Source of the DNA: a virus | Taxonomy: Duplodnaviria > Heunggongvirae > Uroviricota > Caudoviricetes | DNA: 4,000 nucleotides | Direction: 5' to 3' (one strand) | Virus record (IMG/VR): IMGVR_UViG_2711768018_000015 | In this document: positions 2,256 through 3,762 of the stretch, in pieces | How the letters are laid out: every line of letters begins with the position of its first letter | Position numbering within the stretch: the first letter of the stretch is position 1 | The notes under the pieces: generated by a model | The model's database searches: none | What the model was told of the DNA's origin: nothing | The model's input: only the letters and a program-made list of their open reading frames with translations | Translations under genes and position numbers: made by a program

Positions 2256-2392
2256 TATTCATTCTTCCAGATTCCTTCCGGCAGAGCCTTATACTGAAAT
2301 ATACCTGGCTCAGGATATTGTTGAAAATATTTTATGTTTGTCAAAAATAAAAGTTCTGTTAAGTATTGATTGAGTGTTTGTTATACGGTCTA

Positions 2393-2719
2393 ATGGTTTT
2401 TTCAGCATTAAATATTTATCATTCATATGGTGTGGGTAGAGTGAATATTGATGAGGCGTCGGGGTGTTTCATCCTTAGGCAGCGTATTGATATAGTCAAT
2501 GCAGCACGAGCAAAGGCCTTCAGCCGTTTGACAGTTTTGTTCTGTACTCCTGATCGTCTTTCGGGAAGAGACGTTATTATTCTGAATAGTGATGCTATAC
2601 AGAGGGTTTGCGATGAGTTCATGGTTGCTAATTCAGAATTATTTGCTCTTGTTCAGGAGTACAACAGAATAGCCAGGACCTGTGGTATGGATGAACTTCG
2701 GATTACTCATCTGGGGTAG
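2393..2719 (+). CDS. Hypothetical cargo protein (orphan ORF A, about 92-108 aa depending on start), rich in rare codons
   Basis: Open frame 2366-2719. Possible starts are ATG 2393 (no SD) and GTG 2441 (weak GGTG/GGG upstream); none is strong. Of 11 Arg codons, 6 are AGA/AGG; of 10 Ile codons, 3 are ATA. The composition is protein-like. It lies 110-185 nt downstream of tRNA-Arg(UCU), in the position stxA occupies in Stx phages. No homolog recognised. Confidence 0.4.
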   Translation: MVFSALNIYHSYGVGRVNIDEASGCFILRQRIDIVNAARAKAFSRLTVLFCTPDRLSGRDVIILNSDAIQRVCDEFMVANSELFALVQEYNRIARTCGMDELRITHLG

Positions 2720-2830: not shown

Positions 2831-3110
2831 CGGGTGTGGTGGTTGTTGCTTTCCCGTTGCTGAAAAAGAAAACGCCAGACTGTTAGCCGGGTATCAGTTA
2901 GCGGGAGAAATTTTTAAATACTTCACAATTCAGGCGGTTGACTGTTGTCTGGTTTGCGGGGAGTTTGTTAAAAGAAACTGGCATGGTGAATCCCCCTGTG
3001 CGGAGGGGCAATCAGCGAGTAGGTATATGGGATAATCGCGGATTCAGGTGCTGGTACTGAATTCACCGGGAGGCACCCGGCACCATGCAATGGCACATAG
3101 CGCCACTCTC

Positions 3111-3140
3111 CAGCCCCTCTCCGGAGGGGCTGTTTATATT
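3111..3140 (+). terminator. Rho-independent terminator (9-bp perfect GC-rich stem, 4-nt loop, T-rich tail)
   Basis: CAGCCCCTC (3111-3119), loop TCCG (3120-3123), GAGGGGCTG (3124-3132), then TTTATATT (3133-3140). It sits tail-to-tail between the two convergent cargo ORFs. The U-tract is on the + strand only, so it is mainly a + strand terminator. Confidence 0.65.
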
Positions 3141-3166
3141 GATTTTGTCAGATGTGAGTAAACTCC

Positions 3167-3502
3167 TTATGGACTTTGTTGTTTTAGTCCATAAGGACAT
3201 ATTTGCAGAGTGCAACGGTTATTAAAGCATTCATTCAATACGTTATCTGTATTTGTAGGGCATTCCTGGCTATTTTTGATTGAATTCCAGAATGTTTTAT
3301 TGAATGGTACTACGTTGTAAATGGTTACAGGTAGCACTTTGTTATTGAGCATGATGCCTGTGTGAGTCAGTGTAAATATACTTTCAGGAGGTAAGAAAGC
3401 ATCCGATTGATACCAGATTATTAATTTTATTTTACTCCATATGACTGAAAAAGATATTCCGCATGATGGCTGGATAACTGTATCAATCACAATCCACTTC
3501 AT
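3167..3502 (-). CDS. Hypothetical AT-rich cargo protein (orphan ORF B, 111 aa) with a C-terminal Cys-x9-Cys-x4-Cys-x4-Cys cluster
   Basis: ATG at 3500-3502 (minus strand) is preceded by AAGGAA with a 6-nt spacer, a good RBS. Of 13 Ile codons, 6 are ATA, and GC content is low (I did not compute the exact value). The sequence has no obvious signal peptide. The C-terminus reads ...[27 protein letters not shown].... No homolog recognised. Confidence 0.5.
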
Positions 3503-3597
3503 TTAGTTTCCTTGTTTATGCCTTGCTGGTGATGTTCTGAAAAGTATAAATGATATTTTTGAATGTAAACCATAGAGCAGAATTATTTTTCTGATGT

Positions 3598-3611
3598 TGT
3601 TTATTGTTTAT
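3598..3611. repeat. Tandem direct repeat TGTTTAT x2 within an AT-rich divergent intergenic region
   Basis: TGTTTAT at 3598-3604 and 3605-3611. Further GTTTAT copies occur at about 3514, 3626 and 3645. The significance is unknown and may simply reflect AT-richness. Confidence 0.3.
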
Positions 3612-3762
3612 TTAAATGCAGGGTGGTTTATATCTCGTCTTGTAGTTTATCCATGCATATCTGCTTGATAATCAGGTTTTTATTTAAGGTATGGTTTTGT
3701 GTTTTTTCTGTATTACATGTCAGGTATTTTAAAGAATTATTTTTCAGATGGTGGAAAGAACC

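Follow-up and report, generated by a model that had tools for sequence, protein, structure and literature searches.

The GC-rich, hairpin-dense spacer in the window (the whole 4,000-nucleotide stretch of DNA that was analysed) is a gene for STnc100 small RNA, a prophage family already catalogued, and it is a known and ordinary member of that family. STnc100 RNAs are on record from prophages of E. coli and related bacteria and are known to bind Hfq, an RNA chaperone. The preliminary description of this DNA had put forward, as its leading idea, a discrete structured small regulatory RNA ending at the terminator at 3111-3140, and this idea is borne out by the STnc100 match, by identity to the Sakai RNA EcOnc05 and by conserved, covarying hairpins. 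The matches to the family and to its published member are as follows.

2952-3141, + strand: match to Rfam RF02076 (STnc100), found with cmscan and covering model positions 1-206 of 206
2923-3131, + strand: block 100% identical to the STnc100 copy of Sakai prophage Sp4 (EcOnc05), from the alignment and its mismatch list
3010-3044, - strand: exact match of the published EcOnc05 Northern probe, whose sequence is given in the supplement of PMC4104026

The Rfam scan that had been proposed as a check returns a full-length model match at 132.4 bits (E = 4.4e-30), for which the curated gathering threshold is 47 bits; the Sp4 copy of E. coli O157:H7 Sakai (locus L275:946-1136) scores 138 bits for STnc100. 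EcOnc05 gives a Northern band of ~222 nt in Sakai, and its Hfq CRAC peak passed in 5/5 data sets (Tree et al. 2014, PMC4104026). Judged by its sequence, the window element is identical to this published Hfq-bound, Northern-detected RNA. Since the probe matches the minus strand, it detects + strand RNA, and this polarity, together with the many G-U pairs and the U-tract, fixes the + strand as the RNA strand. The same probe would cross-hybridise with sister STnc100 copies. The Sakai coordinates of the 2014 supplement are those of an earlier genome version and not of NC_002695.2; from probe positions and the AsxR match, the offset to NC_002695.2 is ~0 at 0.90 and 1.18 Mb and ~+137 at 1.27 Mb. RefSeq lacks an annotation of the RNA and places a pseudo 'hypothetical protein' over the element on the opposite (minus) strand.

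What had been noticed in the letters themselves (three hairpins, a repeated 9-mer, a terminator and a contrast in GC content) is all present at the coordinates given for it. The hairpins CCCCT/AGGGG (2993-3008) and CCGGG-AGGCA-CCCGG (3066-3080) can be read directly, as can the 9-bp terminator hairpin CAGCCCCTC-TCCG-GAGGGGCTG at 3111-3132 with the TTTATATTGATTTTG that follows it; a terminator scan finds the same site with 9 pairs, 7 of them G-C. GC content is 51-57% over 2950-3149 compared with 27-44% in 2300-2750 and 3150-3750, and no ORF of at least 60 aa covers the segment, the longest being 50, 46, 42, 40, 37 and 37 aa. The 9-mer CGGAGGGGC occurs twice, at 3001-3009 and 3122-3130, where 0.01 matches are expected by chance and two matches were seen in 0/200 shuffles; the repeat reflects a wider similarity, with 15/17 identical positions, between hairpin 1 (2993-3009) and the terminator hairpin (3114-3130).

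Folding of the + strand, a further check proposed at the outset, places all three hairpins in the minimum-energy structure together with an 8-bp closing helix (2981-2988 with 3081-3088). The elements of this core are listed below.

2981-2988, + strand: 5' strand of the closing helix P1 (GCAUGGUG), pairing with 3081-3088 as an inverted repeat
2993-3008, + strand: hairpin 1, CCCCU-GUGCGG-AGGGG, with a conserved GCGG in the loop
3011-3016, + strand: 5' strand of a pseudoknot, AUCAGC, pairing with GCUGGU at 3050-3055 in the loop of hairpin 3
3040-3064, + strand: hairpin 3, GGAUUCAG at 3040-3047 with CUGAAUUC at 3057-3064; its loop (3048-3056) carries the 3' strand of the pseudoknot (3050-3055)
3066-3080, + strand: hairpin 4, CCGGG-AGGCA-CCCGG, nearly invariant and inside a 22-mer (3064-3085) conserved across genera
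3081-3088, + strand: 3' strand of the closing helix P1 (CACCAUGC), the partner of 2981-2988

The folding energy by itself is only modestly unusual (z-score -2.3 to -3.0 vs dinucleotide shuffles), so the weight of evidence lies with the Rfam match and with covariation. Pair counts were taken from covariance-model alignments; a MAFFT alignment was dropped for this purpose because it aligned the variable region too poorly, with pairing in only 40.7% of cells for the pseudoknot and 56.9% for inner hairpin 3. Among 128 distinct sequences, 87.3% of the cells at consensus pairs are paired vs 75.3% in shuffles (0/500), and the covariation score is 0.363 vs 0.03-0.10 when partners are slid. Compensatory, both-side changes occur in 6/8 pairs of P1, in 3/5 pairs of hairpin 1 (85% of cells paired) and in 8/8 pairs of hairpin 3 (88.4% of cells paired). 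Several helices thus covary across genera, as the preliminary description had suggested checking, and the closing helix, hairpin 3 and the pseudoknot have support from covariation over at least 20 genera of Enterobacterales. The STnc100 consensus fold, consisting of a closing helix, internal hairpins and a 3' terminator hairpin, is reproduced and is supported by covariation.

The pseudoknot is absent from the Rfam structure line and from a 2026 preprint on PasD and STnc100 (bioRxiv 10.64898/2026.05.13.724894). Cognate strands pair at a mean of -9.85 kcal/mol vs -6.54 kcal/mol for non-cognate partners, and the cognate mean was reached in 0/10,000 permutations. When the alignment is not fitted to the pseudoknot, 71.9% of its cells pair, vs 60.7% in shuffles (0/500) and 17-46% when slid; after fitting, 89.3% of cells pair and compensatory changes are found in 5/5 pairs. 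The core is a compact five-way junction, which this covarying pseudoknot locks. Hairpin 4 presents a different picture: no covariation was seen in it among the 128 distinct sequences, because it hardly varies. Its exact 15-mer is present in 102/110 unique copies (copies found via a 5' anchor only), and the exact 22-mer around it occurs in 110 stretches of species-representative genomes and in >120 viral contigs. The near-invariant hairpin (CCGGGAGGCACCCGG) also holds a Shine-Dalgarno-like GGGAGG.

Downstream of the core, homology to other copies breaks at ~3089, so that the element consists of a core and a tail in a modular organisation with a recombination boundary at about that position. The tail has two parts.

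3089-3110, + strand: variable linker AAUGGCACAUAGCGCCACUCUC, a putative seed region, with a small predicted hairpin (3091-3094 with 3102-3105)
3111-3140, + strand: intrinsic terminator with a 9-bp stem (3111-3119 with 3124-3132), a UCCG loop and then UUUAUAUU

The linker may serve as a seed, by analogy with PasD, whose predicted seed UGUGAG sits at the equivalent position. The U-tract UUUAUAUU is interrupted, a departure from the optimum both for termination and for Hfq binding. Of 212 unique family copies, 107 have a terminator, by a strict definition, that ends 40-60 nt beyond the core; some genomes have, in place of a terminator, an ORF with a ribosome-binding site after the core. A switch between hairpin 1 and the terminator hairpin, prompted by the repeated CGGAGGGGC, was considered and rejected, as their similarity is confined to one tail type (31/188 unique copies).

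The element lies in the late region of a lambdoid prophage, which is the usual setting of STnc100. The gene order is Q, tRNA-Ile/Arg/Arg, DUF3927, STnc100, iraM (opposite strand), DUF1737, holin and lysozyme, with the Q antiterminator gene at 694-1548 (Pfam PF03589) and the holin and lysozyme genes read from the identical RefSeq locus. The immediate neighbours are the following.

2755-2886, + strand: gene for a DUF3927 small protein of 43 aa (Pfam PF13064, E = 1.7e-27), annotated in RefSeq and likewise present at PasD1/PasD2
3167-3502, - strand: convergent downstream gene for an IraM-family anti-adapter (NCBIfam NF007393, E = 4.7e-48), annotated in RefSeq

The preliminary description placed the element between two convergent ORFs; the convergent gene downstream is indeed there, but the real 43-aa DUF3927 gene between its upstream ORF and the element had been missed. 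All five other Sakai prophages checked carry an STnc100 copy in the same place, with the same layout from Q to the lysis genes. ORF clustering within 2 kb yields no gene family tied to the element; it returns the expected late genes (Q, holin, lysozyme, DUF3927, methylase) and spurious ORFs running through tRNA genes. A tRNA or tRNA-like origin, prompted by the cloverleaf-like topology and the tRNA array, was rejected: ARAGORN finds nothing, and the sole Rfam tRNA match is a real tRNA-Arg remnant at 2205-2244.

Comparison with named relatives separates what the window shares with the family from what is its own. EcOnc05 in Sp4 has the same fold, the same terminator hairpin and the same position between the late promoter/Q and the lysis genes; the two part at 3132, the final base of the terminator stem, and stay different beyond it. 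The Sp4 copy directly follows a tRNA-Arg gene and faces the convergent sRNA EcOnc08, whereas the window copy follows DUF3927 and faces the iraM-like gene. EcOnc27 (sRNA103), the STnc100 copy 75 nt downstream of stx2B in Stx2 phages, belongs to the same family (207.7 bits), with the same core and relative position, and is Hfq-bound and Northern-detected; unlike the window copy, it has another linker and seed, another terminator, and a back-to-back pairing with the anti-sRNA AsxR. Bands of ~235 and 247 nt have been described for EcOnc27, the 247-nt species being destabilised without hfq; its overexpression is reported to raise fimZ and espA, and sequence variants of this stx2-linked copy help to predict haemolytic uraemic syndrome. 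These effects (fimZ, espA and haemolytic uraemic syndrome) are not transferable to the tail of the window copy. In EDL933, 10/11 STnc100 copies have roughly 330 to 6,400 transcriptome reads, and one (STnc100_4) is Northern-confirmed. AsxR and AgvB, unrelated anti-sRNAs of 51-60 nt that sponge core sRNAs, occupy the same moron site, abut the STnc100 3' end on the opposite strand in Sakai Sp5, Sp9, Sp10 and Sp17, and are its usual convergent partners in Hfq-binding sRNA dyads. The window lacks such a partner: neither RNA matches anywhere in it at Rfam E values up to 1, and the iraM-like CDS takes that side.

PasD1 and PasD2 of EPEC E2348/69, the equivalents of EcOnc13 in Sakai Sp3, are more distant, and shared ancestry with STnc100 has been proposed (bioRxiv 10.64898/2026.05.13.724894). 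They resemble the window copy in having DUF3927 upstream, the closing helix, hairpin 1, hairpin 3, the pseudoknot (in PasD, AUGAUC with GAUCAU) and an aligned promoter element. At 37.7 and 41.4 bits, however, they score below the Rfam threshold, which the window exceeds, and a 7-nt deletion has removed the 3' strand of hairpin 4, which is complete in the window. In PasD, the predicted seed UGUGAG closely precedes a GGCUGCGC...GCGCAGCC terminator; the window has neither, and its aligned tail is unrelated to this 3' module.

With family membership, identity to an Hfq-crosslinked and Northern-detected RNA, covariation of the fold and genomic setting established, we consider it likely that the STnc100-family gene is a non-coding 'moron' of the lambdoid prophage late region and encodes a two-module RNA acting with Hfq. 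The first module would be the conserved folded core (2981-3088), in which the 8-bp closing helix surrounds hairpins 1 to 4 and the pseudoknot links the segment that follows hairpin 1 with the hairpin-3 loop; it may act as a stabilising or protein-binding scaffold. The second would be the variable, swappable 3' tail (3089-3140), made up of linker and intrinsic terminator. In the lysogen, a weak sigma-70 promoter belonging to the RNA gene itself probably drives its synthesis, which would begin near G2981 and end in the U-tract at 3133-3140, although longer species may start upstream of G2981. The RNA would bind Hfq, and its lineage-specific linker, which directly precedes the terminator, could base-pair in trans with mRNAs or with other sRNAs. 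In the lysogen, the terminator would halt moron-driven transcription running antisense into iraM and toward the lysis genes, and during lytic growth Q-modified polymerase would presumably read through it. Reviews assign STnc100 no function. A base-pairing sRNA would not need so elaborate a core, nor one so well conserved across genera, least of all the almost invariant hairpin 4, and the scaffold idea may therefore understate the role of the core.

The origin of the 5' end bears on the first of the alternatives. Two sites upstream of the closing helix are relevant.

2945-2974, + strand: candidate promoter with -35 TTGTCT (2945-2950), an 18-nt spacer, TG (2966-2967) and -10 TAAAAG (2969-2974)
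2938-2943, + strand: -35-like TTGACT, conserved in copies of the Sp4, Sp5 and Sp9 types

The TTGACT pointed out in the preliminary description is present, but is probably not an operative -35, because the alignment with PasD gives another promoter; the accompanying remark that it has no convincing -10 holds, the best hexamer at 17-nt spacing being GAGTTT (total 7/12). The candidate at 2945-2974 is suggested by its alignment with the TTGACT-N17-TTAAAA element upstream of PasD1/PasD2, whose 5' end, estimated from RNA-seq coverage, is the G of GCAUGGUG; by this analogy, transcription in the window would start near G2981. TTAAAA is invariant in 7/7 window/Sakai copies, and the promoter of the window copy is weak. 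The RNA could instead lack a promoter of its own and be cut from a longer transcript started upstream (DUF3927 mRNA, the tRNA array or read-through from the late promoter), which we regard as unlikely. Such a 3'-UTR- or trailer-derived sRNA would differ only in how it is made, and could serve the same function afterwards. No promoter-like site placed to drive the element turns up in the promoter scan, and upstream of the closing helix no hexamer pair scores above 7/12. An RNA starting at 2981 would be ~60 nt shorter than the published ~222-nt band, and the Sp4-type (~222 nt) and Sp5-type (235/247 nt) bands exceed the distance from closing helix to terminator by 60-70 nt. Identity to Sp4 begins only at 2923, and the Sp4 DNA upstream of it is a tRNA-Arg gene. 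Against processing, the estimated PasD 5' end is the first base of the closing helix, behind a promoter element with an aligned counterpart in the window; 15/59 diverse copies have a sigma-70 match scoring 9/12 or better with its -10 ending 2-11 nt before the closing helix (shuffled control, 5%), so good promoters abut this helix in diverse family members; and ChIP-exo in Salmonella LT2 (Figure 6D) records RpoD and RpoN binding patterns at STnc100 promoter regions. A structured 3' UTR, offered in the preliminary description as another explanation, fares less well than a separate sRNA, but a 3'-UTR or processed origin may still apply to the longer RNA species.

The other alternatives concern what the element does. 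Selection might act on the core (2981-3088) and not on a base-pairing seed, making it a binding module for a protein, the ribosome, RNA polymerase or a small ligand; we hold this as a tentative possibility. Temperate phages from at least 20 enterobacterial genera carry the core, and two or three copies are common. If this were true, Hfq-dependent sRNA behaviour would be secondary or one use among several, for example alongside 5' leaders of moron genes. It is quite improbable that the core is a cis-acting sensor or leader, riboswitch- or attenuator-like, deciding between stopping at 3111-3140 and reading on into downstream genes. The compact pseudoknotted fold with near-invariant nucleotides across at least 20 genera would fit such a role, some copies have an ORF with its ribosome-binding site 30-90 nt further downstream, and the 15/17 identity between hairpin 1 and the terminator hairpin makes alternative pairings possible; yet the downstream genes are mutually unrelated (lipoprotein, porin-like protein, small acidic proteins), the gene that follows in the window is encoded on the other strand, a terminator ends half of the copies, the window has no match to any Rfam riboswitch family, and stable, discrete Hfq-bound RNAs are observed. 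We give very little credence to a small protein encoded by the 46-aa ORF at 3085-3225 (+) or the 42-aa ORF at 2968-3096 (-). The SD-like GGGAGG (3068-3073) does lie 11 nt before the AUG at 3085, two EDL933 copies have ribosome-coverage values of 3.2 and 2.2, and there is the RefSeq pseudo 'hypothetical protein' over the element on the minus strand. None of the four overlapping short ORFs, however, has a Pfam or NCBIfam match; the AUG lies inside the closing helix and is replaced by CAC in most genera (CACCAC instead of CACCAUG); core length varies from 100 to 145 nt with no multiple-of-three pattern; the + strand ORF passes through the terminator; and ribosome coverage is low in most EDL933 copies. 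The antitoxin-like RNA that the preliminary description also entertained finds no toxin ORF, antisense overlap or repeats in its favour. Prophage morons do often include hok/sok, and hokD lies ~4 kb upstream in the identical locus, but neither a hok-like nor any other toxin ORF lies over or next to the element, ToxI-type tandem repeats are lacking, and no Sok or other antitoxin family matches in the window, which leaves an antitoxin of a type I or type III system with a negligible probability.

STnc100 is among the sRNA families most frequently annotated in bacterial genomes; it directly adjoins stx2 in Shiga-toxin phages and has been detected in outer-membrane vesicles, and reviewers see no clear reason why these sRNAs occupy the prophage late-region site. 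The window adds nothing new on where the family occurs. As a practical point, RefSeq shows an opposite-strand pseudo 'hypothetical protein' where this RNA should stand. Several by-products of the analysis may be useful to experimenters, namely the covarying pseudoknot, the near-invariant hairpin 4, the core/tail boundary at ~3089 and the promoters that abut the closing helix in distant members of the family.

The GC-rich, hairpin-dense spacer at ~2930-3140 (+) of the window (the element) is an ordinary and already known member of the catalogued STnc100 family. A scan of the window with Rfam 15 gave one strong match, to RF02076 ("Gammaproteobacterial sRNA STnc100", gathering score 47), at 2952-3141 (+) with 132.4 bits, E = 4.4e-30 and positions 1-206 of 206 aligned, and its consensus structure contains all three hairpins of the preliminary description. 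For an identical sequence, experimental data are already published. The window is 100% identical over 2923-3131 to the copy in prophage Sp4 of E. coli O157:H7 Sakai, and the Northern probe for the Sakai RNA EcOnc05 (PMC4104026 supplement) matches the minus strand exactly at 3010-3044 and therefore detects a + strand RNA. EcOnc05 has an Hfq UV-crosslinking (CRAC) peak in 5/5 data sets and gives a band of ~222 nt (PMC4104026); by our own coordinate mapping the peak lies at about 3013-3121. The identity with this Hfq-bound, Northern-detected STnc100 RNA supports the small regulatory RNA that had been the lead reading from inspection of the sequence, and we found no support for an antitoxin-like RNA.

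The gene order in the identical RefSeq locus (L001) is RusA, antiterminator Q, tRNA-Ile, tRNA-Arg, tRNA-Arg, DUF3927, element, iraM-like (opposite strand), DUF1737, holin and lysozyme, with the neighbouring families confirmed by Pfam and NCBIfam searches. The element lies downstream of the late promoter, at the "moron" site for which Tree et al. (2014, PMC4104026) described Hfq-binding sRNAs in at least eight Sakai prophages. Comparison with L001 shows that the masked N run at 1590-2203 covers the tRNA array (~2006-2255 in window coordinates); a weak Rfam tRNA match at 2205-2244 comes from the last tRNA-Arg, whose 3' part is left unmasked. The contrast between the GC-rich spacer and its AT-rich flanks holds (51-57% GC over 2950-3149 vs. 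27-44%). The gene layout first proposed had overlooked a genuine 43-aa DUF3927 gene at 2755-2886. The "ORF A" of that layout is probably a TTG-initiated ORF of 117 aa at 2366-2719 (+), in an AT-rich stretch that separates the tRNA array from the DUF3927 gene. RefSeq leaves it unannotated in the identical locus, neither Pfam nor NCBIfam gives a match, and the ORF may not be genuine. The last codons and stop codon of the iraM-like gene on the minus strand fall within a perfect 12-bp inverted repeat (3164-3175/3186-3197; TCCTTATGGACT / AGTCCATAAGGA, 10 nt between).

All the features first noted lie at the positions given for them, and the ORF listing has none of 60 aa or more across the segment. 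The main features of the element are:

2938-2943 (+), TTGACT, the -35-like motif noted earlier
2981-2988 with 3081-3088 (+), 8-bp closing helix bounding the core
2993-3008 (+), hairpin 1, CCCCT-GTGCGG-AGGGG
3011-3016 (+), AUCAGC, just 3' of hairpin 1
3040-3064 (+), hairpin 3, with GCUGGU in its loop (3050-3055)
3066-3080 (+), hairpin 4, CCGGG-AGGCA-CCCGG
3089-3110 (+), linker
3111-3132 (+), 9-bp terminator hairpin followed by TTTATATTGATTTTG, also found by a terminator scan

In the + strand fold the closing helix surrounds four hairpins and is followed 3' by a small hairpin and then the terminator. The folding z-score is -2.3 to -3.0, so folding energy by itself is just mildly unusual, and the strong evidence for the element comes from other sources. 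With a covariance model built on 55 aligned cores sharing <80% identity (136 hits aligned, 128 distinct), standard pairs make up 87.3% of pair cells compared with 75.3% in shuffles (0/500), and the covariation score is 0.363 vs. 0.03-0.10 when partners are slid. Both-side changes occur in 6/8 pairs of the closing helix and 8/8 pairs of hairpin 3. Hairpin 4 is 99% paired almost without variation, and its exact 15-mer is kept in 102 of 110 unique sequences retrieved by a 5' anchor only. The many G-U pairs, the U-tract and the polarity of the probe agree in indicating + as the RNA strand. The repeated motif CGGAGGGGC (3001-3009 and 3122-3130; 0.01 matches expected by chance) recurs because hairpin 1 (2993-3009) and the terminator hairpin (3114-3130) are identical at 15/17 positions (CCCCTGTGCGGAGGGGC and CCCCTCTCCGGAGGGGC), a likeness that could reflect duplication or convergence and is limited to one tail type (31/188 unique copies).

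AUCAGC and GCUGGU are complementary, and the partners co-vary among diverse cores: CUGGU/ACCAG (Sp5), CCAGUC/GACUGG, GGCAAA/UUUGCC and UUAACC/GGUUAA. Three tests support this pseudoknot. Cognate partners have a mean energy of -9.85 kcal/mol vs. -6.54 for non-cognate ones, and 0/10,000 permutations attained the cognate mean. In the alignment not fitted to the pseudoknot, 71.9% of its cells pair; shuffles give 60.7% (0/500) and slid partners 17-46%, the register having been picked by scanning, which somewhat favours the result. A second covariance model, in which the pseudoknot replaced hairpin 3, produced an alignment fitted to the pseudoknot; there pairing is 89.3%, and each of five pairs shows 4-6 pair types. 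The pseudoknot is absent from the RF02076 structure line printed by cmscan, and the word from a 2026 preprint on PasD and STnc100 (bioRxiv 10.64898/2026.05.13.724894); it may be recorded elsewhere.

Homology between STnc100 copies stops at ~3089, where the closing helix ends. In one phage the first 160 query bases are 99.4% identical and the remainder divergent, and Sakai Sp11 has the core common to Sp10 and Sp17 with a different tail. By a strict definition, an intrinsic terminator ends 40-60 nt past the core in 107/212 unique copies; among the rest are copies with looser terminators and copies in which an ORF with its ribosome-binding site follows after 30-90 nt. One subfamily (L008, L009, L014, L033, L050 and L003; e.g. 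L008:2313-2445) has GCGGCUCAGCGCRCGC as hairpin 1 instead of CCCCCUNNGCGGNGGGG. Five of the six (not L003) have an ORF with a ribosome-binding site directly 3' and no terminator, and there the core may be a 5' leader. A sigma-70 match of at least 9/12 with the -10 ending 2-11 nt before the closing helix is present in 15/59 diverse copies (shuffled control, 5%). Aligned with the PasD element TTGACT-N17-TTAAAA, the window has TTGTCT (2945-2950) and then TG-n-TAAAAG (2966-2974), and TTAAAA is invariant across all seven window and Sakai copies. This alignment predicts a start near G2981 and an RNA of ~160 nt, in agreement with the RNA-seq-estimated PasD 5' end (bioRxiv 10.64898/2026.05.13.724894); with the published band of ~222 nt, the 5' end would be expected near 2917 instead.

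We compared the corresponding regions of Sakai Sp3, Sp4, Sp5, Sp9, Sp10, Sp11 and Sp17. All have STnc100 matches of 105-208 bits except Sp3, whose PasD-like copy (37.7 bits) is under the Rfam threshold. EcOnc27/sRNA103, located 75 nt 3' of stx2B, gives bands of ~235 and 247 nt, the latter species being destabilised in an hfq mutant (PMC4104026). In EDL933, 10/11 STnc100 copies have ~330 to 6,400 transcriptome reads and one is Northern-confirmed, and ChIP-exo in Salmonella LT2 treats STnc100 as a multi-copy sRNA with RpoD and RpoN binding patterns at promoter regions. In Sp5, Sp9, Sp10 and Sp17, STnc100 and an AsxR/AgvB-type anti-sRNA encoded on the other strand meet 3' end to 3' end, with 0-1 nt between them (L234 523-782; L276 1022-1291; L278 1087-1339; L279 928-1182); the window has no such partner. 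The Storz laboratory preprint (bioRxiv 10.64898/2026.05.13.724894) proposes common ancestry of STnc100 and the EPEC E2348/69 sRNAs PasD1 and PasD2, which our comparison confirms. These score 37.7 and 41.4 bits against the STnc100 model, share the upstream DUF3927 gene, align through promoter region and core, and retain the pseudoknot pairing as AUGAUC/GAUCAU, but have another tail and a 7-nt deletion that takes out the hairpin 4 3' strand.

Among 5,426 complete E. coli genomes, 2,860 contain the 261 bases around the element, at as many as 12 sites each; these bases are also found in 284 phage records, mainly Stx2-converting phages, and one of the records annotates the site as STnc100. The 22-mer CACCGGGAGGCACCCGGCACCA (3064-3085) is exact in 110 stretches of species-representative genomes from at least 20 genera, including Kosakonia, Enterobacter, Klebsiella, Raoultella, Citrobacter, Pantoea, Erwinia and Buttiauxella, and in more than 120 viral contigs, frequently two or three times per contig; 16 of 18 scanned loci carrying it reach the Rfam STnc100 threshold. 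It also occurs in assemblies labelled Prolixibacteraceae, Mucilaginibacter, Vagococcus and Geobacteraceae (L011, L037, L048, L071); as the copies there look typically enterobacterial, contamination of these assemblies is likely. Two or three cores within 220-490 nt of one another are present in many genomes and viral contigs (L022 3441-3788; L026 6365-7005; L119, L126, L127, L135, L143, L157, L166, L177), each with a different tail, in effect arrays of the element. In genomes of Enterobacter and Citrobacter, STnc100 copies have Rfam matches to isrI and isrJ, two Hfq-binding RNAs encoded on Salmonella islands, a few hundred bases away or less (L016 6864-7657; L004 7338-7434; L047 1537-1607), which suggests a common prophage RNA neighbourhood.

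RefSeq annotates no ncRNA over the element; a CDS marked pseudo or "hypothetical protein" stands there on the strand that does not encode the sRNA, and likewise over PasD1 of E2348/69 and EcOnc13 of Sakai (window 2971-3096 (-); L001 6072-6197; L232 401-799; L235 367-765). These CDSs look like annotation artefacts, and the 42-aa minus-strand ORF of the window has no family match. That the segment codes for a small protein is unlikely. Ribosome footprints do fall on two EDL933 copies, for which the conserved GGGAGG in hairpin 4 might be the source, but there are no family matches, core lengths vary regardless of reading frame, and the AUG at 3085 lies within the closing helix and is missing in most genera. 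A riboswitch-like leader is also improbable, since downstream genes are unrelated to one another and, in the window, the gene that follows has the opposite orientation. The longer RNA species could possibly originate from processed transcripts, which is compatible with the same function.

Our comparisons establish the family membership of the element, its identity to an Hfq-bound, Northern-detected RNA, its covarying fold and its prophage late-region setting. We propose that the RNA would be a non-coding moron expressed in the lysogen and bound by Hfq, with the core as a scaffold. By analogy with PasD, whose predicted seed is at the equivalent position (bioRxiv 10.64898/2026.05.13.724894), the variable linker just 5' of the terminator may be a trans-acting seed. 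The terminator would keep moron-driven transcription out of iraM (antisense) and away from the lysis genes, and Q-modified polymerase would read through it. With its pseudoknot and a nearly invariant hairpin, the core looks more specialised than base-pairing sRNAs typically need, and only by this route could the locus lead to something new.
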